From: Aurantimonas sp.
GTDB taxonomy: Bacteria; Pseudomonadota; Alphaproteobacteria; Rhizobiales; Rhizobiaceae
Direction of reading: 5' to 3'
Assembly (NCBI GenBank): GCA_965217685.1
Contig: CBDCIZ010000003.1
Span: 697,657-761,656 of the forward strand
Length of the DNA stretch: 64,000 nucleotides
Every line of letters begins with the position of its first letter. The stretch's first letter is position 1. Shown here piece by piece: positions 18,815-28,651 of the stretch. Made by a program: the position numbers and the translations under genes. The notes under the pieces were generated by a model. It ran no database searches and was not told the origin of the DNA. It saw only the letters and a list, made by a program, of their open reading frames with translations.

Positions 18815-20146
18815 TCAGACGCCGGTCATTGGAACGATCTTCGAACCATCCGAGAAGCGCGAGAACCGGAACGCATCGGGATTGACGATCGGCGGATCTC
18901 CAGCGGAGAGATCAGCGGCAAGCCGCCCGGCACCTGGCCCAAGTCCGAAACCGTGACCTGAGAAACCCGTAGCCACAACGAGTCCCGAGCAGCTTTTTAC
19001 TTTCGAAATAACCGGTACGGCATCGGGCGTCACATCGATGAGGCCGGCCCAGCGTTGAGCAATTTCTGCGTTCCGGAACGCCGGGAAGGCCTCGGCCAAT
19101 CGTTTCATTGCGGTATTGCCCATCTCGATGTTTGGCTCCGGATCAAGAATGCGCGTCCGCTCATAGCGGCTTTCCTGGCCCGGTATTCCCCGACGCATGT
19201 CGCGCCATTCCTCGAAGAAGCGGCGACCGATGCGCGGCGACATGGCTTTCCACTCCATCTTGAGCGCGGGCATGAACTGGCGGGCAAAGCGGAAGCTGTC
19301 CGGTGTCAGATCGAAAATGTTCGATGCAAGTGTCGAAACCGTATATCCGCCATCGGCCCGCTTTCTGACGGAAAACCCCGGACCTCGCACAGTCACGTCC
19401 GGCCCGCCTTCGATCGGCCTGGTGCGAAGAACCGAGTTGAGCACCTTGAGCTGCGGCAGAGTGATCCCGATATCGCGCAACAGAAGTCGGGACCATGCGC
19501 CGCCGGCAACGACGACCCGGTTCGTTCTGATCCGCCCGCGCTCGGTGACGACGCCGCTGATGGCACCGTCCAAACATTCGATTTCGCGGACCGCACAACC
19601 CGTCAGGATGGTTCCGCCCTTCGCCTTGACTGCGCGAGCGATCGCGGGCGCCGTCGTCTGGGGCTCGGCGCGACCATCCGTCGGAGAATAGAGCGCGCCG
19701 TCATAGTCGAGGTTCATGTCCGGCGTCAGCGTTCTCACGTCGTCGCTGCCGATCGCCGACACGCGATATTGCGTGTCCTTGATATAATCGAGCCATTTGA
19801 CGTTCTCGTCTCTGAACACTTCGGAATAGAATGGAACGACAATTCCGCACTGGCGGTAACCGACATCGTGCCCGATCCGTTCTGCGAGCGTTTCCCAGAT
19901 GCGGATCGAAGCGGCCATCAGGTCGATTTCCCGGGGATCGCGTCGGGACATGCGCACCCAGCCCCAGTTCCGACTGGACTGCTCTCCGGCGATCACACCC
20001 TTCTCACACAGAACGACCGAATGGCCTCGCTCGACGAGTTCGAGCGCAGTCGAAACGCCGACGATTCCGCCGCCGATGACGACGACGTCGGCTTCATTTG
20101 CAAAGTGGGTCGAGGCTTCGACCGGATCGACCATGGGGCCGGGCAT
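18815..20146 (-). CDS. FAD-dependent oxidoreductase (DAO / D-amino-acid-dehydrogenase-like)
   Basis: 443 aa. N-terminal dinucleotide fold DVVVIGGGIVGVSTALELVERGHSVVLCEKG. Confidence 0.9.
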   Translation of the reverse strand: MPGPMVDPVEASTHFANEADVVVIGGGIVGVSTALELVERGHSVVLCEKGVIAGEQSSRNWGWVRMSRRDPREIDLMAASIRIWETLAERIGHDVGYRQCGIVVPFYSEVFRDENVKWLDYIKDTQYRVSAIGSDDVRTLTPDMNLDYDGALYSPTDGRAEPQTTAPAIARAVKAKGGTILTGCAVREIECLDGAISGVVTERGRIRTNRVVVAGGAWSRLLLRDIGITLPQLKVLNSVLRTRPIEGGPDVTVRGPGFSVRKRADGGYTVSTLASNIFDLTPDSFRFARQFMPALKMEWKAMSPRIGRRFFEEWRDMRRGIPGQESRYERTRILDPEPNIEMGNTAMKRLAEAFPAFRNAEIAQRWAGLIDVTPDAVPVISKVKSCSGLVVATGFSGHGFGLGPGAGRLAADLSAGDPPIVNPDAFRFSRFSDGSKIVPMTGV

Positions 20147-20230
20147 TGCATTGAACTTTCTGGGAGGAAGGAATGCTTCGCGCCATGGCCGTCAGTACAC
20201 TGCGGCCTTTATGGAAATGTCAGCGATTGG

Positions 20231-21265
20231 TCACGCCGAAGCAGAAGCGAGCTTGCGCACCTGCTCGAGGATCTGCGGATCGATTTCGACGCCGTTCCGG
20301 TCTGCTTTGGCTCTCGCTGCGTAACGCCTGCTGCCCGGAAGCCGCGTGCCATCCTGTTCGGCTACTACTGCGGCAATCCGGGTGATGCGTTCTGCAAACG
20401 CGTTTCCAGCCGTCACATCGGGCGCAATCGCGATGAAGAACTGACCGGTCCTCGGAGGTCCGCCGCTCGTGCCGCTGAAGGGCGCGGCGTCGATGCCGAG
20501 CATGGCTCCGGTCAATGCCGCTGCCATGACTTCGGTAAGTAGCGCCAGCCCCACGCCCTTATAGCCTCCGAGCGGCGCCATCGTACCGCCAAGCGCTGCA
20601 TCGGGGTCGGTCGTCGGATGGCCATCGACGTCAAGAGCCCAGCCCTCCGGGATCGCCTCACCCCGACGGGCCCGCTTCATGACCTCGGATTTCGCAACCA
20701 CGCTGGCGCTTTGATCGATGGTCAAAGCGGGGCCATCGGGGCCCGGCACAGCAAGCGCGAATGGATTTGTTCCGAAGACGGCGCGAGTTCCGCCGGCAGG
20801 CGCGATCGATGCAGGCGAATTGGTGAAACCAATACCGACGAGGCCTTTTTCGGCAAGCCATTCTACATGATAGCCGAGCGCGCCGCAATTGTAGGACTCA
20901 TGGATGGCAAGGCACGCGATGCCGTTGCTTTCGGCGGCCGGGATCAGAGCGGAAAATCCAAGATCGATCGATGGATGGGCGAACCCGGTCCTCGCATCAA
21001 CGATGACAGCTGCGGGGCGCGGCTGGCTCAGAACCGGCTCGGCCTTTCCATCGACCTTGCCGCATTCGACATGCGAACAGTAGGTCGGAACATACATGAG
21101 CCCGTGACTCGCTATCCCATCGCGCTCGGCGGCAGCGACGGCACGTGCAAGCGAACGGGCACTGGTATCTCTCGTCCCGGCGACTTTGAGGGCGGAGAAC
21201 GCCAACTCCTGGATTTGCGAAGGCGTCAAGGTGGAAGTGGCGCTCATGGTCGCGTCCTCAGTCAT
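20231..21265 (-). CDS. Ldh_2 family (malate/L-lactate dehydrogenase type 2) oxidoreductase
   Basis: 344 aa with family-typical segments (AAERDGIASHGLMYVPTY, GYKGVGLALL). ATG at 21247, preceded by GAGGA, may be the true start. The 21265 start would overlap the upstream stop by 8 nt. Confidence 0.85.
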   Translation of the reverse strand: MTEDATMSATSTLTPSQIQELAFSALKVAGTRDTSARSLARAVAAAERDGIASHGLMYVPTYCSHVECGKVDGKAEPVLSQPRPAAVIVDARTGFAHPSIDLGFSALIPAAESNGIACLAIHESYNCGALGYHVEWLAEKGLVGIGFTNSPASIAPAGGTRAVFGTNPFALAVPGPDGPALTIDQSASVVAKSEVMKRARRGEAIPEGWALDVDGHPTTDPDAALGGTMAPLGGYKGVGLALLTEVMAAALTGAMLGIDAAPFSGTSGGPPRTGQFFIAIAPDVTAGNAFAERITRIAAVVAEQDGTRLPGSRRYAARAKADRNGVEIDPQILEQVRKLASASA

Positions 21266-21902
21266 TGTCGGATGTTGCAGCTCCTGCGCCGCTCACGCGG
21301 GAACTCTCGGTCGACGGCGCATGGGTTTTGCCGGCGAGCCGTACGAGCACCTGATAGGCCTTTGCGCTGACGAAGCGGGAGCCGGTTTCGGGAAGCTGTG
21401 CAGCCTTGTCGATCGCCGCATTGTCGTCGCAGCAGACAACGTCGCGTCCGACCGGATAGTCGGTGCCGCCGCGCTGTTCGATCGCCAATGCGTCTGGGAA
21501 ACAGGTGGCGGAGAAGTCCTGCCAGCGAAGTGTCAGCGTGACCCCGAGCGCATTGGCCGACCGGCTCGCCTGACCCAGCAGCAGGAGTGGCTCCGCAACG
21601 TCGCCCAGATCGGCCGCTTTTCCGTCCGCAATATCCCCGGCCTCGTCGGACAGTTGGGCTCCGCTGGCGATCGCGCAATTCGGTGCTCCCGTCTCGCCGG
21701 TGCAACCGCAGCTTCTTCGAGCTGTCAGGAGCGAAGCCAATGCTTCGGGGCCCGGAAGGCCATAACCGGCGATCCAGCGAGCCGCCTTGCCGGCCTCTTC
21801 CGCAAGCCCCCAGGGGCACCCCGCACCCCTTGCAGCCTTCCGGGCGAGCGCATCGATCTCGGAGAGCGACAGGCGAATCGGACGGCTTTCTTCGCCGGTC
21901 AT
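21258..21902 (-). CDS. conserved hypothetical protein, 214 aa (resembles what I recall as DUF3726)
   Basis: Uninterrupted ORF with ATGA overlap to the upstream 571-aa ORF. N-terminus LSEIDALARKAARGAGCPWGLAEEAGKAARW and a Cys-rich patch SCGCTGETGAPNC. No catalytic family recognised. Confidence 0.6.
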   Translation of the reverse strand: MTGEESRPIRLSLSEIDALARKAARGAGCPWGLAEEAGKAARWIAGYGLPGPEALASLLTARRSCGCTGETGAPNCAIASGAQLSDEAGDIADGKAADLGDVAEPLLLLGQASRSANALGVTLTLRWQDFSATCFPDALAIEQRGGTDYPVGRDVVCCDDNAAIDKAAQLPETGSRFVSAKAYQVLVRLAGKTHAPSTESSRVSGAGAATSDND

Positions 21903-23614
21903 GCCGCGACCTCGTTCAAGGGCGGATAGGCCCAGTCGTCGGACGGCGACGTCCCGAGTTCATGGGGAAAGGGCGCGTTCTGAAACATGCAGATGCGCAC
22001 CCAACGATCCGACCGGGGATCGAACCGCGTCGCGCCGAAGAAGGATAATTTGCAGCGCAGGATGTCGATTGGCATCATCTCCGCGCCGATCAGATTATCT
22101 CTGATCTCCGCATAGGGCCGGCCAGCCGAAAGCTGAACGCGTCGAACCGTATGACGATGTTGCGGATGAGCTCCAAGAAAGCCAGCAACCGTGGGTGGCT
22201 CTGTGGAAACGCCTTTCAGATCAGCCGAAAGAATGGATATCGCTCGACCGACGTCTAGCGGTTGTTCGTATTCGGCGCCGACGTCCTGATGGCGCTCGCC
22301 GAGACGAGGCTCCAGCTTTTCCTCCGAAACGTACCAAAACCGGGACCTGTTTTTCGGTTCGGCGTAATCGACGTCAAGCGCCCAGGTATAGTTCTCGGCA
22401 ATCAGGTCTTTGAGCTTTGCAACAGGCATCGCTCCCTCGATGCGGAAGCACGCGTTTTCGTCGACATGCATCGTTGCCGTCAGATCATCGACGCATTCGC
22501 CATAGGGTTCGAGGATCAATGCGGCAACCTGTTCCTGCGCTTCGATGCCGAGATTGTCTTCCGACCATGAGATGAGTTCGTCCCACGGATGACCGGTTTC
22601 GAGCGCGTCCGTTTCGATGTGCGCTGCGAGCGTTTCGAGATCGCGGCGAAGGATCTCACATCTCTCGTTCTGGCTGGGGTGATCGGTATGCCAACTCTCG
22701 GCATTCAGTCGAGCCCGCTTCAGATATGACCGGAAATGACTGCGCTCCACCGAAGTGGCCTTCGGCATCGCGCGGACGCGGACAATCGCGGTTTCGCGTG
22801 CCTTCATCCAGGCATCGAGAAGCGCAGGATGGTTGACCAGAAACGGCGCCATGCCAAGGCCCGTCGAATTGCCTACGCCGAAACGCCGGCGCAACTCCGG
22901 ATCGATCGCCGTCGCCGCGCTCCCGCCGTTGACGTGCGCTGCATGCTCGGCAAGATCGAGCGTGAAGGCGCGGATCAGCCAGACAGACAGCATCTCGATG
23001 TGGAAAGGCGCACTCATCACCTGACGCCCAAGCAGTGCGGCCCGGTCGGCGGCGCCGAACTTGCCCGAGCCGTAAACCGCCGTCGTCCGCATCAGGTAGC
23101 CGACCTTGTCGATCTCGTGGATCGAAGGCTGCAAGCCCTTCGCCAGACATTCGACGACATGGTTCCAGAGCCGAACGGAGCGATTGGCTCGGGACAGAGA
23201 AAGCTCCCGATCGCTGATGCGTCCCGCCTCCTGCAGCGGCACGTTTTCAGAAAGACGCGCGATGTCGTCCGCATCGGGCACGCCGTCGAACAGGGTAAAG
23301 GTTGCATCCCACGACGTCGCGATGACCCGATCGGAACGCATCTCGTCGGGAAGATCGTGGGCGAACGCGACCAGACTGTAGATTCGCCTCGGTCCCTTCG
23401 CCGTGTAAACCGCATGGCCGACGCCATTTCCGTCGATCGACCAGTCGGCGCATTCGAACGTCCAGTTCTCGCGCTTCAAGTGACGCAGTAGCGAGCGCAT
23501 GAACGAAAGCCGGGTCTGGTGAGCGCTTCCCATTCGCGAGAGGCGCATGACCATGTCGGGAGAACGAAGTTCGGGAGCCGGACCGGCATCGAGGACTGCT
23601 TGATCGAGGTTCAT
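21899..23614 (-). CDS. hypothetical protein, 571 aa, no recognisable family
   Basis: Long uninterrupted ORF with composition like its neighbours. It starts 35 nt downstream of the BCCT gene and overlaps the next ORF by ATGA. No TM segments, P-loop or metal-cluster motifs seen. Confidence 0.7.
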   Translation of the reverse strand: MNLDQAVLDAGPAPELRSPDMVMRLSRMGSAHQTRLSFMRSLLRHLKRENWTFECADWSIDGNGVGHAVYTAKGPRRIYSLVAFAHDLPDEMRSDRVIATSWDATFTLFDGVPDADDIARLSENVPLQEAGRISDRELSLSRANRSVRLWNHVVECLAKGLQPSIHEIDKVGYLMRTTAVYGSGKFGAADRAALLGRQVMSAPFHIEMLSVWLIRAFTLDLAEHAAHVNGGSAATAIDPELRRRFGVGNSTGLGMAPFLVNHPALLDAWMKARETAIVRVRAMPKATSVERSHFRSYLKRARLNAESWHTDHPSQNERCEILRRDLETLAAHIETDALETGHPWDELISWSEDNLGIEAQEQVAALILEPYGECVDDLTATMHVDENACFRIEGAMPVAKLKDLIAENYTWALDVDYAEPKNRSRFWYVSEEKLEPRLGERHQDVGAEYEQPLDVGRAISILSADLKGVSTEPPTVAGFLGAHPQHRHTVRRVQLSAGRPYAEIRDNLIGAEMMPIDILRCKLSFFGATRFDPRSDRWVRICMFQNAPFPHELGTSPSDDWAYPPLNEVAA

Positions 23615-23649
23615 GTGTCCGACTCCCGTTGTCTTGGTGTATCAGCGGA

Positions 23650-25200
23650 TCACGCGCTGCGGCCCTTCAGAAGGGTGATGCGCGCTGCGTCCCAAAGTGA
23701 AGGCAACAGCACCAGAGAGACAGGCACCGCCGTTACGACAATGAAGCTCTGCAACTTTCCGACTCCGCCCGAGCCGGTATAGATCAGGATCATCGCCATG
23801 ACGCCGATTGCAACGCCCCAGAACACGCGCACGGGCGTGGACGACCGGTCTTCGTCCGACATTGCGACCGAGATCACGTATGTCATCGAGTCACCGGTGG
23901 TGGCGACGAAGATGATCGTCAGAAGCATGAAGAGCAATGAGACGATCAGTCCGAAGGGCAACCCTTGCGTGATCGCCAGAAGCGCAGCCGGCAAGTTGAA
24001 GCCCTCGAATGCCGCCGCGACCGTGTTCGGATTGGCGAGTTCCATGCCGATTCCGGTTCCGCCGACGATCGTGAACCAGAAGGTGGTGACGATAGGCGCA
24101 ACGATCGAAAGCATGACAATGATCGAGCGTATCGAGCGGCCACGGCTGATGCGGGCGATAAACATTGCCATCAAAGGACCGTAACCAAGGAACCAGCCCC
24201 AGAAAAACACAGTCCACCAGCCGAGCCAGCCCGGGTCGCCAAAGACCCCGGCGTCGCCGCGATAGAGCGCAATCTGGAAGAATTTGGCGATGTAAAGGCT
24301 GAACCCTTCAAACCAGCTTTCCAGGATGAAGGCCGTCGGACCTGCGGCCAACACGAAGACGACGAGTACAAAAGCCAAGACGATGTTGATCCGGCTGAGA
24401 AGTTGGATGCCACGATTGAGGCCGGTAACGGCCGAGGCCGTATAAAGGACGACCAGTCCGGTGATGATCACGGCTTGCGTCGCGAAGACATCCGGGATTC
24501 CGAACAATTCGTTGGCGCCATAAGAGACCTGAAGGCCGAGGAAGCCGATAGGGCCAACGGTTCCGGCGACGACAGCGATAATGCAGCACGCATCCGCAAT
24601 CAGACCGATCGGTCCGTTGATGGCGCGCTCCTTGAACACCGGGTAGAGCAATGTGCGCGGGGCCATCGGCAGGCCCTTCTCGTAGTGGTAGTGCATGAGC
24701 ATGACGGTGGTCAGCGAGCCGAGGATTGCCCAGGCGAGAAACCCCCAGTCCATGAAGCTCTGCGCCAGAGCCGGAGCGACCGCTTCGGGCGTGCTGCCCG
24801 TTACGCCGGAAAACAACGGCGGTGGCGAGACGAAATGGGCCATAGGTTCGCCTGCCGCCCAGAAAACGCCGCCGCCTGCGAGCAGCGTGCACATGATCAT
24901 CGAGCCCCATTGGAAGTACGAGAATTCCGGTGTTTCAAGACCACCCAGCTTGGCTTTGCTGCCGGGTAAAACACACAATCCCAGACTGATCAGAAAGGTC
25001 GCAAGCAGGAGGATTTGCCAATAAAGACCGAAGAACCGTGCAGAAAAGTCGAAACCGACGTCGACCGCCGCCGAAAGACCGTCAAGGTCGACGAGCGCCC
25101 AGACGCAAAACAACGCGATGAAGCCGCCGGTAATTGCAAACAGCGGTACGTTTATGTGTCCGTCGGGCGAAAGTGCCGAGGGAATGGTGTTTTCACTCAT
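23650..25200 (-). CDS. BCCT-family (betaine/carnitine/choline) transporter
   Basis: About 516 aa from MSENTIPSAL, with 12-TM-like hydrophobic profile and a Trp-rich segment WTVFFWGWFLGYGPLMAMFIARISRGRSIR typical of BCCT TM8. The track ORF extends to 25395, but ATG at 25200 overlaps the dipeptidase stop (ATGA). Confidence 0.9.
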   Translation of the reverse strand: MSENTIPSALSPDGHINVPLFAITGGFIALFCVWALVDLDGLSAAVDVGFDFSARFFGLYWQILLLATFLISLGLCVLPGSKAKLGGLETPEFSYFQWGSMIMCTLLAGGGVFWAAGEPMAHFVSPPPLFSGVTGSTPEAVAPALAQSFMDWGFLAWAILGSLTTVMLMHYHYEKGLPMAPRTLLYPVFKERAINGPIGLIADACCIIAVVAGTVGPIGFLGLQVSYGANELFGIPDVFATQAVIITGLVVLYTASAVTGLNRGIQLLSRINIVLAFVLVVFVLAAGPTAFILESWFEGFSLYIAKFFQIALYRGDAGVFGDPGWLGWWTVFFWGWFLGYGPLMAMFIARISRGRSIRSIIVMLSIVAPIVTTFWFTIVGGTGIGMELANPNTVAAAFEGFNLPAALLAITQGLPFGLIVSLLFMLLTIIFVATTGDSMTYVISVAMSDEDRSSTPVRVFWGVAIGVMAMILIYTGSGGVGKLQSFIVVTAVPVSLVLLPSLWDAARITLLKGRSA

Positions 25201-26240
25201 GACATTGCTCCGGTTTGCGCTCTCGCGGCGCCATGCCACTGCAGCGACGTCAATTCGGACCCGGCCGGTCCAAAGCTTGCATCGAAAAAGCGGAGCCAAT
25301 TGCCACCCATGATGCCGGCGGTCTCGTACGCATCGAATCCTATGGCGCGCAGCCCGTCTTCGATCCTGTGGAAGTGACGATTGTCTTCGAACCAATTCGG
25401 CATCGGCGGAAAACCCGGCGCCGTAGCGCTGCCCTCACCGAAATCCTCGCCTTTGGTCCAGCGTCCCATACGCATCCACTTCACGACGCTGTCCGGCTGA
25501 TCCTGGCAAAGGTCCGAGCCGACCCCAAAATGCTCAGCGCCGATCATTTCTGCGGTGCGGGCAATCATTTCGCAGAAGCTCTCAAGCGTGCAGGCGCTCT
25601 TGTTCTTGAGATGATGCGGGTAAAGGGAAAAGCCGAGCATGCCGCCACTTTCGGCCAGAGCCCTGATCACCCGATCCGACTTGTTGCGCAGCGCCGGTGC
25701 CCAAGAGGCCGGATTGGCGTGCGTGATCGCAATTGGCCGCGTGCTGCAGGCGATGGCTTCAAGCGTCGATCGTTCGGCGGAATGGCTCATGTCGACGACG
25801 AGGCCAACCCGATTCATCTCGGCAATGACTTCGCGGCCCATGCGCGTCAGGCCTGGATCCTCGTCCTCGTAGCATCCCGTCGCGAGAAGCGACTGGTTGT
25901 TGTAGCTGAGCTGCATGAAGCGGGCGCCAAGCTGATGAACGATTTCGACGAGCCCGATATCGTCCTCTATCGGCGAGGGGTTCTGAAATCCGAAAAAGAT
26001 CGCGGTTCTGTTCATGCGCCGCGCTTGGCGCACGTCGTCGCCGCGCATCCCGCGCATGATAAGATCGGGATGATCCTCGAACCAGCGGTTCCAGCGAGAG
26101 AAGTTCATGACCGTCTCGCGAAAGTTCTCGTGATAGGCGATGGTCACGTGGACGGCGTCGACACCGCCCTCGCGCATCTGCCGGAAGATGCGTTCGGACC
26201 AATTGGCGTATTGAAGTCCGTCAATCCGAAAACCGATCAT
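25197..26240 (-). CDS. membrane (renal) dipeptidase family M19-like metallohydrolase
   Basis: From MIGFRIDGLQYANW. M19-like segments (VVDMSHS, ITHANP). ATG at 26240 overlaps the ALDH stop (ATGA). Confidence 0.85.
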   Translation of the reverse strand: MIGFRIDGLQYANWSERIFRQMREGGVDAVHVTIAYHENFRETVMNFSRWNRWFEDHPDLIMRGMRGDDVRQARRMNRTAIFFGFQNPSPIEDDIGLVEIVHQLGARFMQLSYNNQSLLATGCYEDEDPGLTRMGREVIAEMNRVGLVVDMSHSAERSTLEAIACSTRPIAITHANPASWAPALRNKSDRVIRALAESGGMLGFSLYPHHLKNKSACTLESFCEMIARTAEMIGAEHFGVGSDLCQDQPDSVVKWMRMGRWTKGEDFGEGSATAPGFPPMPNWFEDNRHFHRIEDGLRAIGFDAYETAGIMGGNWLRFFDASFGPAGSELTSLQWHGAARAQTGAMS

Positions 26241-27697
26241 GCCGGCTCTCCAGACCGGATGTAGGCGGTCTTGACTGTCGTATAGAATTCCCTGGCATAT
26301 TGACCCTGTTCGCGGGGACCATAGGAGCTGTGACCCCGGCCACCGAACGGCACGTGATAATCGGTTCCAGCCGTCGGCAGGTTCACCATGACGCATCCGG
26401 TTCTCGCATGGCGCCGAAAATGGCTGGCCCGCGAAAGGCTTTGCGTGACGATGCCGGAGGTAAGGCCGTATGCGGTGTCGTTGGCGGTCGCGAGCGCCTC
26501 GTCATAGCTATCGGCGCGAATGATACAGGCGATAGGGGCGAACATTTCCTCACGGTTGACGCGCCAGGCGTTTTTCGTCCCGGCAATGACTACAGGGGCC
26601 ATGAAATAACCCTCGGTCTCGCGGTCCAGCCGGTCTCCGCCGCACAGGATCTCACCGCCTTCTTCTCTTGCAAGAGACATGTATTCGAAGTTCTGTTCGA
26701 GCTGGTCTTCGCTGACGACTGGGCCCATCTGGGTCTGCAGGTCGAGGGCATGGCCGACGCGCATCGCCTTCGCTTCGGCAACCAAACGTTCGACGAAAGC
26801 GTCATGGATCGCCGGATGTACGACCAGACGCGACGATGCTGTGCATTTCTGGCCGGTGCCGCCAAACGCGCCGTTCACGGCGCATGTGACGGCGATGTCC
26901 AAGTCCGCGCCGTCCATGATCGCGAGGGCATTTTTCGAACCCATTTCGCACTGGACGCGAGCGAGACTACCGGCACCCGCGGCTGCGATCTGGCGTCCGA
27001 CGGCCGTCGACCCGGTGAAGGTGATGGCATCGATCCCGGGGTGTTCGATCAGTTTCTGTCCGACACTACCGCCCGGTCCCATGACAAGGCTGAAAAGGCC
27101 CTCGGGAAGACCCTGACGAACGATAATATCGGTGAGGGCGACTGCCGATGCCGGCACCAGATTGGCCGGCTTCCAGATCACCGCGTTTCCGAATGCAAGC
27201 GCCGGTGCGATCTTCCAGGCGGCGGTCGCCATCGGAAAATTCCAGGGCGAGATGACGGCGACCACGCCGACGGGCTCACGGCGGATATCGACTTCGACCC
27301 CGGTCCGCACACTGTCGGCGGTTTCCCCCATCTGCCGCAAGACCTCGGCGCCATAATAGGTAAAGAACTGACCAGCGCGGTGGACCTCGCCACGCCCTTC
27401 GGCCAACGACTTGCCCTCTTCACGACTCAGCAACATGCCGAGTTCTTCGGAACGCGCCATAAGCTCGTGGCCGATCGCAATCAGCTTATTGCTGCGCGTC
27501 TCGAGCCCGGTTGTGGCCCAACGTCGCTGAGCAAAGGCCGCGGCTTCGACGGCCCGGTCCACATCTTGAAACGAGGCCTGGGCGAAGGATCCGATGACGT
27601 CCGAGAGATCCGACGGGTTTCGGTTCTCGACCACGGTCGAGCCGGATTTCCATTCGCCTGCGATCAGGTTCAGACCATCGGACATCATCGCCTCCAT
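26237..27697 (-). CDS. NAD(P)-dependent aldehyde dehydrogenase
   Basis: 486 aa. ALDH motifs VISPWNFP, FTGST, CEMGSKNA (Glu) and GQKCTASSR (Cys). Confidence 0.9.
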   Translation of the reverse strand: MEAMMSDGLNLIAGEWKSGSTVVENRNPSDLSDVIGSFAQASFQDVDRAVEAAAFAQRRWATTGLETRSNKLIAIGHELMARSEELGMLLSREEGKSLAEGRGEVHRAGQFFTYYGAEVLRQMGETADSVRTGVEVDIRREPVGVVAVISPWNFPMATAAWKIAPALAFGNAVIWKPANLVPASAVALTDIIVRQGLPEGLFSLVMGPGGSVGQKLIEHPGIDAITFTGSTAVGRQIAAAGAGSLARVQCEMGSKNALAIMDGADLDIAVTCAVNGAFGGTGQKCTASSRLVVHPAIHDAFVERLVAEAKAMRVGHALDLQTQMGPVVSEDQLEQNFEYMSLAREEGGEILCGGDRLDRETEGYFMAPVVIAGTKNAWRVNREEMFAPIACIIRADSYDEALATANDTAYGLTSGIVTQSLSRASHFRRHARTGCVMVNLPTAGTDYHVPFGGRGHSSYGPREQGQYAREFYTTVKTAYIRSGEPA

Positions 27698-27760
27698 TCC
27701 GCCAAGCGAAAAGGATTGATGGAGAGCGCCTATTCAGTCAAACTAGAACTTCTGACCTTA

Positions 27761-27779
27761 ATTTCAGAAAAGCTGAAAT
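27761..27779. promoter_or_regulatory. candidate LysR-type operator (T-N11-A palindrome)
   Basis: ATTTCAG-AAAAG-CTGAAAT, a perfect 7-bp inverted repeat in the ALDH/LysR divergent region. A related TTCAG-N14-CTGAC lies at 27733-27756. Confidence 0.4.
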
Positions 27780-27781
27780 AT

Positions 27782-28651
27782 ATGCTGAAGCTCGAAGCAA
27801 TGCGCGTTTTTGTGGCGGTCGCGGAAACGGGGAGTCTCGCCGCGGCTGCCAATCGAATCGGGAGAACGCCAGGGGCTGTGTCCATGACCTTGAAGCAGGC
27901 GGAGGAGGAAATCGGCGGAGCCCTGTTCGACGCTGACCGGAAGGCCCGGTTGACGCCACTAGGCACGACGGTCTTGCGGAATTGCCGCCATGCCCTCGAA
28001 GCCTATGCCGCGGCGATGGGAGAAATCGAGCGATACACGCGCGGTGACGAGGGCACTTTGCGGCTGGCATCCACCCCGTCGATTGCAAGACGGGTCTTGC
28101 CATTGATCGTCTCGTCGATGCTGAAAACCCGGCCGAATCTGCAATTCGAAATCCGTGATGTCGATTCCCAATCCGTCGCCGAACTCACAACAGCCGGCCT
28201 GGTCGATTTCGGAATCGCGAGTCTGTCGGCGGCATCCCGCGGACTGAAGGCGGAAATGCTGTTGGAAGACAAGTTCCACGTCGTTTGCCTGAAGGGCCAC
28301 CCGCTCACCGTCGCTTGCGAGCCTGTCACGTGGGAGGCACTTTCCGCCTACGACTTCATCCACAACGGCCTTTGCGACGCGATCGGTTCGCAGGCCGTCG
28401 CAAAACTATCCGTCACGGCTCGTTTGCGCGCCCGCAATGTAGGCGCCTTGTTCGGCCTGATCGAATCCGGGCTTGGTGTGACGATCCTTCCTTCGCTCGC
28501 TGTGCCGGCAGAAGGGAGTTTGACCAGCGTGCCGTTGGCTGATCAGGCTGCAACGAGCCGTGTTCATCTTCTTAGCCGAGACGGAGACGCAGCATCTCCC
28601 ATCGCGCTCCTGTTCAGAGACGCAATACTTCGCTCAATACGCAGCATATGA
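27782..28651 (+). CDS. LysR-family transcriptional regulator
   Basis: MLKLEAMRVFVAVAETGSLAAAANRIGRTPGAVSMTLKQAEEE wHTH. The 783-aa track ORF (26300..28651) is an antisense read-through artefact; only the last ~290 aa are LysR-like. Confidence 0.85.
   Translation: MLKLEAMRVFVAVAETGSLAAAANRIGRTPGAVSMTLKQAEEEIGGALFDADRKARLTPLGTTVLRNCRHALEAYAAAMGEIERYTRGDEGTLRLASTPSIARRVLPLIVSSMLKTRPNLQFEIRDVDSQSVAELTTAGLVDFGIASLSAASRGLKAEMLLEDKFHVVCLKGHPLTVACEPVTWEALSAYDFIHNGLCDAIGSQAVAKLSVTARLRARNVGALFGLIESGLGVTILPSLAVPAEGSLTSVPLADQAATSRVHLLSRDGDAASPIALLFRDAILRSIRSI

Follow-up and report, generated by a model that had tools for sequence, protein, structure and literature searches.

A 64,000-nt stretch of the Aurantimonas sp. 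contig CBDCIZ010000003.1 (assembly GCA_965217685.1; hereafter the window) carries a seven-gene cluster with a divergent gene for a LysR-type regulator and, judged from its sequence, this cluster is a real operon. We read it, with a probability of roughly 0.8, as a homarine (N-methylpicolinate) catabolic operon in which homR diverges from homD-homC-homT-homB-homA, extended by two genes encoding an Ldh_2-family oxidoreductase and a DAO-type flavin adenine dinucleotide (FAD) oxidoreductase. Few small nitrogen metabolites of marine phytoplankton are more abundant than homarine, and to our knowledge the genes for its breakdown were defined only in 2026, with none of the enzymes characterised. The core of the operon is therefore already known and the locus adds nothing to it; what is new are the Ldh_2 and DAO genes, which lie outside the published operon and make this a modest new variant resting on gene context.

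Identity of the operon

The hom genes were described by Ferrer-Gonzalez et al. (Nat Microbiol, March 2026; PMC13236597), who reported a homarine-induced operon in Cobetia sp. OBi1 with the order homE-homA-homB-homT (predicted glycine-betaine transporter)-homC (peptidase)-homD (aldehyde dehydrogenase [ALDH]-like)-homR, as well as homA, B, C, D and R of Ruegeria pomeroyi DSS-3 (SPO3188-3192). The genes SPO3188-3192 and ACFLL8_11495-11520 were validated genetically, and growth on homarine was lost in homB, homC, homD and homR mutants (PMC13236597). Apart from the optional homE, the window genes, matched by description and position, are of the same kinds and in the same order as those of Cobetia. 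The initial annotation had called the substrate an unidentified quaternary amine or N-alkylated amino acid; this no longer holds, given the match of the core to the published homarine operon in both gene content and order. Adjacent homA and homB genes are found in 97.7% of published operons (PMC13236597), and in the window the gene of a small, poorly conserved protein overlaps that of a large, conserved protein belonging to no family. Published hidden Markov model E-values, which reach 3.9e-240 for homB and only 9.5e-57 for homA (PMC13236597), fit such a pair. The window homC and homD lie in one operon (the published criterion being within 10 kb of each other), and there is an adjacent regulator gene, as in hom operons, here the divergent LysR gene; the main text of the paper does not name the regulator family of homR (PMC13236597). 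The predicted orthology of the window genes to the hom genes is thus positional and descriptive, though strong; the HomB of R. pomeroyi was absent among the 120 matches listed for a Ruegeria query.

Further agreement comes from the flank of the R. pomeroyi genes, where SPO3187, beside homA, is an Ldh_2 gene annotated as comC, (2R)-3-sulfolactate dehydrogenase (PMC4334477), and SPO3186 is the BCCT gene dmdT (described in other papers). Loci of Leisingera, Shimia and Tropicibacter have this type of flank (Ldh_2 plus BCCT), as do those of Ruegeria but for the BCCT gene; the 571-aa proteins of loci with the SPO3187-type flank were 57 to 58% identical to the window HomB. The taxa in which relatives were found (Rhodobacterales, SAR116 and others) also agree with the published ones.

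One observation weighs against homarine itself as the substrate. The window HomB is only 55 to 63% identical to the copies in named genomes, so that a related N-methylpyridinium substrate is conceivable. A hom-type core acting on some other N-methylated pyridinium or related betaine (e.g., trigonelline or another picolinate derivative) would also be in keeping with distant clusters of HomB and M19 paralogues that carry other transporters, such as one on Sinorhizobium meliloti pSymB (29 and 40% identity, respectively), which imply that the HomB family has more than one specificity or context. Such a substrate is nonetheless very improbable in our view: with identities of 57 to 83%, the window HomB, HomC, HomD and HomT fall in the main family, against 29 to 40% for the distant paralogues, and the operator box described below is common to the window and the main hom family. 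The pSymB cluster (CP140955.1, locus L094, 5799-17744; also locus L082) occurs in over 60 Sinorhizobium pSymB records and comprises genes for an IclR regulator, a HomB-like protein of 578 aa, a 242-aa protein of no family, the M19-like protein, an ABC importer, a class-III aminotransferase, a succinate-semialdehyde-type ALDH and two RidA proteins. It may break down a different heterocyclic compound.

With homarine as the preferred substrate, the earlier suggestion of a LysR-controlled, BCCT-linked catabolic operon was borne out, and its guess at plant-derived proline- or pipecolate-type betaines was right as to class (an N-methylated heterocyclic carboxylate betaine), but homarine itself was missing from the list of candidates, where its isomer trigonelline did appear. 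With N-methylglutamate as the published end-product, there is no call for the reasoning from D-proline, pipecolate and hydroxyproline routes. Routes for ectoine, hydroxyproline-betaine, carnitine and dimethylsulfoniopropionate were also weighed and were abandoned after the match to the hom genes.

Operon layout, operator and spread of the cassette

The seven minus-strand open reading frames lie where the initial annotation had placed them, and their domains were confirmed by Pfam (Table 1). The sequence likewise confirmed the divergent LysR gene and the perfect palindrome between it and the operon, the ATGA overlaps at 26237-26240 (homD/homC), 25197-25200 (homC/homT) and 21899-21902 (homB/homA), and the 35-nt gap between homT and homB (23615-23649), within which a GGGAG ribosome-binding site precedes homB. 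To these can be added the junction of the DUF3726 and Ldh_2 genes, an 8-nt overlap (ATGACTGA) not listed before, and a gap of 84 nt between the Ldh_2 and DAO genes. A promoter and terminator consensus scan inside the operon returned nothing exceeding shuffled expectation. No enzyme of the operon reaches an NCBIfam equivalog cut-off, and therefore no curated model names their function.

Table 1. The operon, its regulator gene and its predicted operator, in window coordinates
Feature	Position (nt)	Strand	Basis and remarks
LysR-type regulator homR, 289 aa	27782..28651	+	HTH_1 and LysR_substrate; divergent from operon
Palindrome ATTTCAG-N5-CTGAAAT, predicted HomR operator	27761..27779		Sequence; ~65-80 nt 5' of the ALDH start codon
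homD, aldehyde dehydrogenase, 486 aa	26237..27697	-	Aldedh, 4.6e-151
homC, M19-like amidohydrolase, 347 aa	25197..26240	-	Peptidase_M19, 2.6e-72
homT, BCCT transporter, 516 aa	23650..25200	-	BCCT, 2e-146
homB, 571 aa	21899..23614	-	No Pfam or NCBIfam family
homA, DUF3726 protein, 214 aa	21258..21902	-	DUF3726, 7.8e-18
Ldh_2-family oxidoreductase, DpkA-like, 344 aa; predicted imine reductase	20231..21265	-	Ldh_2, 4.6e-94
DAO-type FAD oxidoreductase, 443 aa, last gene; predicted single-subunit N-methylglutamate dehydrogenase/oxidase	18815..20146	-	DAO, 6.2e-74

Relatives were sought in one genome per species; at least 589 species had a relative, and the 80 best loci were retained. Neighbour counts cover only those related loci with enough flanking sequence (denominators of 65 to 72). 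The retained loci belong to Rhodobacterales, SAR116, Hyphomicrobiales, Gamma- and Betaproteobacteria, Acidimicrobiales, Gordonia and a Haliangium metagenome-assembled genome. The M19 gene lay directly upstream of the 571-aa gene in 66 of 69 loci and the DUF3726 gene downstream of it in 63 of 71, so the comparative synteny check that had been called for places the adjacency of the core genes far beyond chance. Other parts were less constant: ALDH was present in 51 of 69 loci and flanked by LysR in 41 of 65, Ldh_2 followed DUF3726 in 22 of 71 (18 of them at ≥55% identity), and BCCT stood between M19 and the 571-aa gene in 15 of 69. These counts describe a genuine cassette that has been widely transferred, its core fixed and its other parts optional. 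It is also worth noting that a plant-type SABATH carboxyl/N-methyltransferase gene (Methyltransf_7, 4e-28) adjoins the hom genes in metagenome contigs that have no ALDH gene (L086, 5962-7080; L087, 2431-3549; L084, 8141-9229).

In the window, the palindrome core TTCA(G/A)-N5-(C/T)TGAA has a single occurrence, which lies in the spacer between homR and homD. In 37 of 72 hom loci the same box was found ≤250 nt upstream of the first structural gene, mostly 80 to 115 nt ahead of the ALDH start, compared with a background rate of 0.0097 per 253 nt. The 1.38 Mb of locus sequence contains 53 occurrences, most of them these 37 sites. Such conservation supports the box as the predicted HomR operator, which would be usable for finding members of the regulon. 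Just upstream of the perfect box there is another, looser inverted repeat, TTCAG-N14-CTGAC (27733-27756).

An optional gene of the published operons, homE, is present in 93% of gammaproteobacterial and ∼6% of alphaproteobacterial hom operons, where it is placed equally often past homA and past homD, and R. pomeroyi has none (PMC13236597). On a Vibrio chromid, the gene of a 132-aa RidA/L-PSP protein separates homR from homD, and genes of this family were found in 7 of the 80 loci (∼9%), three times beside homA and four times beside homR. Because this frequency and the position on either side match the published statistics, we infer that homE is the RidA/L-PSP gene; no RidA-type gene occurs in the window. 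Ldh_2 was rejected as a candidate for homE, as it is found in 31% of loci and in R. pomeroyi (SPO3187), which has no homE orthologue.

Among the core proteins, HomB has no Pfam or NCBIfam match, and its homologues fall into at least 8000 database clusters, every one of them named hypothetical and lacking any Pfam domain, with a mean column identity of 71% across 20 homologues. Its AlphaFold model (predicted local distance difference test [pLDDT] 77, predicted template-modelling score 0.82) had no fold match in the PDB at E < 0.5, and the fold therefore offers no mechanistic lead. The UniRef name of the Ruegeria halocynthiae orthologue (P0336) is "EH_Signature domain-containing", which has no Pfam support in the window HomB. 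In the case of HomA (model pLDDT 90), the top 27 PDB fold matches were all Ldh_2-family oxidoreductases dependent on nicotinamide adenine dinucleotide (phosphate) [NAD(P)], with probabilities up to 0.99, E-values of ∼1e-2 and template-modelling scores of ∼0.4, and the C-terminal motif S-R-x2-G-A-G is invariant. Profile comparison of HomA with the window Ldh_2 was not significant, placing the relation at the level of fold only. From its model HomA looks like a shortened Ldh_2-like fold and, if this is right, it may use NAD(P)H as cofactor instead of flavin. A literature search on DUF3726 returned nothing.

Canonical M19 enzymes have DGHND at the N-terminus, with the His-x-Asp pair of the binuclear zinc site. 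The corresponding sequence is IDGLQY in HomC and VIDGLII in PDB entry 2I5G ("amidohydrolase"), the best solved relative of HomC (9e-57, against ∼1e-21 for canonical dipeptidases), and the Peptidase_M19 profile match of HomC begins only at profile position 35. HomC is probably not an ordinary dipeptidase, and the subgroup that it forms with 2I5G may not be a binuclear zinc dipeptidase. HomD scores below every NCBIfam equivalog cut-off (the nearest being 2,5-dioxovalerate dehydrogenase) and is 61 to 72% identical to its orthologues in related loci. Orthologues of HomT (72 to 78% identity) are encoded between the M19 and 571-aa genes in most of the 15 loci with BCCT, and the position of the window homT is that of homT in Cobetia.

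The appended Ldh_2 and DAO genes

In the published pathway, the N-methyl group of homarine is retained through ring opening and the product is N-methylglutamate, which is converted to glutamate by the N-methylglutamate dehydrogenase MgdABCD, encoded elsewhere; C7H9NO5, C6H9NO4 and C6H9NO3 were observed as labelled intermediates (PMC13236597). By formula, C6H9NO4 is N-methylglutamate minus two hydrogens, or the enamine/imine of 2-oxoglutarate with methylamine. The text of the paper makes no mention of a reductase, an imine or RidA (PMC13236597).

The best solved relative of the window Ldh_2 is DpkA (1WTJ/2CWF/2CWH; 209 bits, 9e-61, aligned end to end), as expected from the initial annotation, in which it was taken for an imino-acid reductase. 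Other solved relatives, comprising ureidoglycolate, malate and sulfolactate dehydrogenases, reach at most 150 bits. Cyclic imines of 2-oxo acids are reduced by DpkA, which can also combine 2-oxo acids with methylamine to give N-methyl-L-amino acids. Together with the 8-nt overlap with homA, the likeness to DpkA makes this gene an obvious candidate for the reductive step leading to N-methylglutamate, and we infer from the sequence comparison a predicted reductase with that product.

For the DAO protein, the best solved relative is the Proteus L-amino-acid deaminase 5FJM (5.6e-68, 233 bits over residues 15-432), and the closest homologues are from Jiella, Agaricicola and Methylobacterium, which points to a probable origin of the window in the Hyphomicrobiales. 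Orthologues (74 to 84% identity) directly follow Ldh_2 in three metagenome contigs with hom genes (L086, L087 and L092), two of which are nearly identical. The surroundings of six other members of the clade were read, and four of these lie beside mgsABC and gmaS of the N-methylglutamate pathway, recognised by GATase_6/7, GXGXG, Glu_synthase and a type III glutamine-synthetase model above cut-off, in Jiella mangrovi, J. pelagia, Methylobacterium phyllostachyos and Acuticoccus sediminis. In J. pelagia the gene is also beside a DmmA-family gene, and in A. sediminis it follows gmaS on the same strand after a gap of 58 nt. No mgdABCD genes were present within 10 kb in these four genomes. A maximum-likelihood tree placed the window DAO and the members whose surroundings were read in one clade (support 100/100), separate from ∼55%-identical proteins of opine-like ABC clusters; hom-linked copies appear at two separate positions inside the clade, a sign that they may have been recruited repeatedly.

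N-methylglutamate as the published hom product needs a dehydrogenase, and the odds that the DAO protein is a single-subunit N-methylglutamate dehydrogenase or oxidase are about even. The fuller proposal, that Ldh_2 makes N-methylglutamate and that the DAO clade is an unrecognised deaminase-like dehydrogenase also serving the methylamine pathway in Jiella, Methylobacterium and Acuticoccus instead of MgdABCD, is tentative and falls somewhat short of an even chance. On the Phaeobacter inhibens plasmid pP51_a (locus L081, 1-788), genes for sarcosine-oxidase-like alpha and gamma subunits, possibly mgd, lie directly beside homR, and the same was seen on 58 Phaeobacter plasmids carrying the full ALDH-M19-BCCT-HomB-HomA-Ldh_2 set. 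These plasmids offer a precedent for the coupling of hom genes to an N-methyl-amino-acid oxidase as a recurring theme.

Several findings weigh against these roles. DAO was next to the hom genes in none of the 71 GTDB loci, and in the window it stands apart from the tight overlaps of the other genes, 84 nt downstream of Ldh_2. The remaining two of the six clade members are in unrelated settings. The position of DpkA Arg58 is Tyr in the window Ldh_2, and many hom operons, including those of SAR11, have neither Ldh_2 nor DAO, so that neither can be essential. Lastly, the nearest solved relatives of DAO oxidise the Cα-N bond, a reaction that with N-methylglutamate would give 2-oxoglutarate and methylamine and would oppose the reductase.

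The last point leads to a different assignment, in which DAO would be a deaminase like its Proteus relatives and convert N-methylglutamate (or glutamate) to 2-oxoglutarate and methylamine (or ammonia). The bit scores speak for it, with 233 bits to a solved L-amino-acid deaminase against at most 124 bits to solved enzymes of the sarcosine-oxidase type. A methylamine-returning enzyme would, however, be futile beside mgsABC-gmaS, which builds N-methylglutamate from methylamine, and a deaminase and a reductase in one operon would cycle; we consider the assignment unlikely. It is quite improbable, too, that Ldh_2 and DAO are merely parked beside the hom genes, either as an independent imino-acid or D- or cyclic-amino-acid module or with Ldh_2 as a sulfolactate dehydrogenase. 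DpkA, pipecolate oxidase and an ALDH do form the known D-lysine/pipecolate route, SPO3187 bears the name comC, DAO is missing from most loci and stands 84 nt from Ldh_2, and its homologues of ∼55% identity occur in opine-like ABC clusters. Against this, Ldh_2 overlaps homA by 8 nt, comes after it in 22 of 71 loci drawn from several orders, scores 189 bits where the NCBIfam sulfolactate dehydrogenase cut-off is 500, and is closer to DpkA (209 bits) than to ComC (142 bits). DAO, for its part, scores 75 against a cut-off of 600 for pipecolate oxidase, and the tree places it in the mgs-linked clade rather than in that of the opine context. The recurrence of Ldh_2 after homA also means that the name comC for SPO3187 may be wrong or incomplete.

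With Ldh_2 as the predicted reductase and DAO as the candidate dehydrogenase, the operon would run as follows. Binding of HomR to the conserved TTCAG-N5-CTGAA box would switch on transcription, and homarine would be imported by the BCCT carrier HomT, as published for Cobetia homT. The N-methylpyridinium ring would then be opened by HomA and HomB, which the published work puts forward as a hypothesis: the two are proposed to work in the manner of TgnAB from trigonelline catabolism, and HomA is said to have FAD-binding motifs (PMC13236597). HomD may oxidise the resulting aldehyde and the M19-like HomC remove a one-carbon N-acyl group, which, going by the formulas, would yield the published C7H9NO5 and C6H9NO4 intermediates. 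Reduction of N-methyl-2-iminoglutarate or its enamine (C6H9NO4) by the DpkA-like Ldh_2 would give N-methyl-L-glutamate and, as gene context suggests, the DAO-type flavoenzyme could demethylate this oxidatively to glutamate in place of the four-subunit MgdABCD. A reductase and a single-subunit dehydrogenase would together make a self-contained homarine-to-glutamate operon.

Ldh_2 is in this way a candidate for a reduction step to which no enzyme has been assigned, and the same gene adjoins homA in R. pomeroyi, a model organism in which its annotation is that of a sulfolactate enzyme, and is found on the Phaeobacter plasmids. If the proposal for DAO is true, a single gene substitutes for the often misannotated four-subunit N-methylglutamate dehydrogenase, and this would affect how the use of methylamine and homarine is scored in genomes and metatranscriptomes.

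Comparison with known systems

The dimethylglycine genes of Pseudomonas had been named in the initial annotation as a parallel, with an M19-like gene and a small gene beside dgcAB. PA5396 (putative dipeptidase, 978 nt) and PA5397 do precede dgcAB in Pseudomonas; PDB entry 2I5G, with 325 residues, the length expected for PA5396, may be that protein. The parallel was upheld for the M19-like gene, a homologue of homC (34% identity between HomC and the Ralstonia copy), and failed for the small gene, which in the Ralstonia operon encodes a DUF5943 and V4R protein, not DUF3726. In the dimethylglycine operon of the Ralstonia solanacearum megaplasmid (L095, 5666-14631) the order is glyA2, M19-like gene, DUF5943 and V4R gene, dgcA, dgcB and etfAB. 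A plasmid search with HomA reached only hom-type clusters, with no DUF3726 gene beside dgcAB, and there is no dgcAB in the window operon. The dgc operon has in common with the window operon only its initial M19-like amidohydrolase, homologous to HomC; it is without HomB, and its chemistry is dimethylglycine demethylation. The roles of the M19-like and V4R genes in that demethylation appear to be unstudied.

TgnAB of Acinetobacter baylyi, the published analogy for HomAB, opens the ring of an N-methylpyridinium carboxylate and keeps the N-methyl group. No sequence or fold relation was found between the two pairs, HomB having no PDB fold match and HomA being Ldh_2-like, not flavin reductase-like.

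For the two appended enzymes, DpkA of Pseudomonas (Δ1-piperideine-2-carboxylate reductase/N-methyl-L-amino-acid dehydrogenase) is the closest solved relative of the window Ldh_2, which differs in lying below all NCBIfam equivalog cut-offs, in having Tyr for Arg58 and in its proposed substrate, N-methyl-2-iminoglutarate. The Proteus membrane L-amino-acid deaminase, a DAO-fold enzyme with an N-terminal membrane anchor, is the closest solved relative of the window DAO, which is without the anchor: the protein begins directly at the GxGxxG motif, with no hydrophobic leader and without the ∼20-residue N-terminal extension of the Proteus deaminases. MgdABCD has the same reaction as that proposed for DAO and the same genomic company, members of the DAO clade lying beside mgsABC-gmaS, but consists of four sox-like subunits (of beta, delta, alpha and gamma types) compared with one 443-aa DAO protein. 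The window DAO may work in a similar way but is not a member of this enzyme type, as there are no partner subunit genes in the operon and the soxB family model gives 110 bits against a cut-off of 529.

[quoted passage not shown] OBi1 and R. pomeroyi. It shares with the window the kinds of genes, the order (that of Cobetia) and the taxonomic spread; the window differs in having no homE and in the appended Ldh_2 and DAO genes. In the published hom pathway the last step is performed by an unlinked MgdABCD, whereas the window operon carries a linked candidate in DAO.

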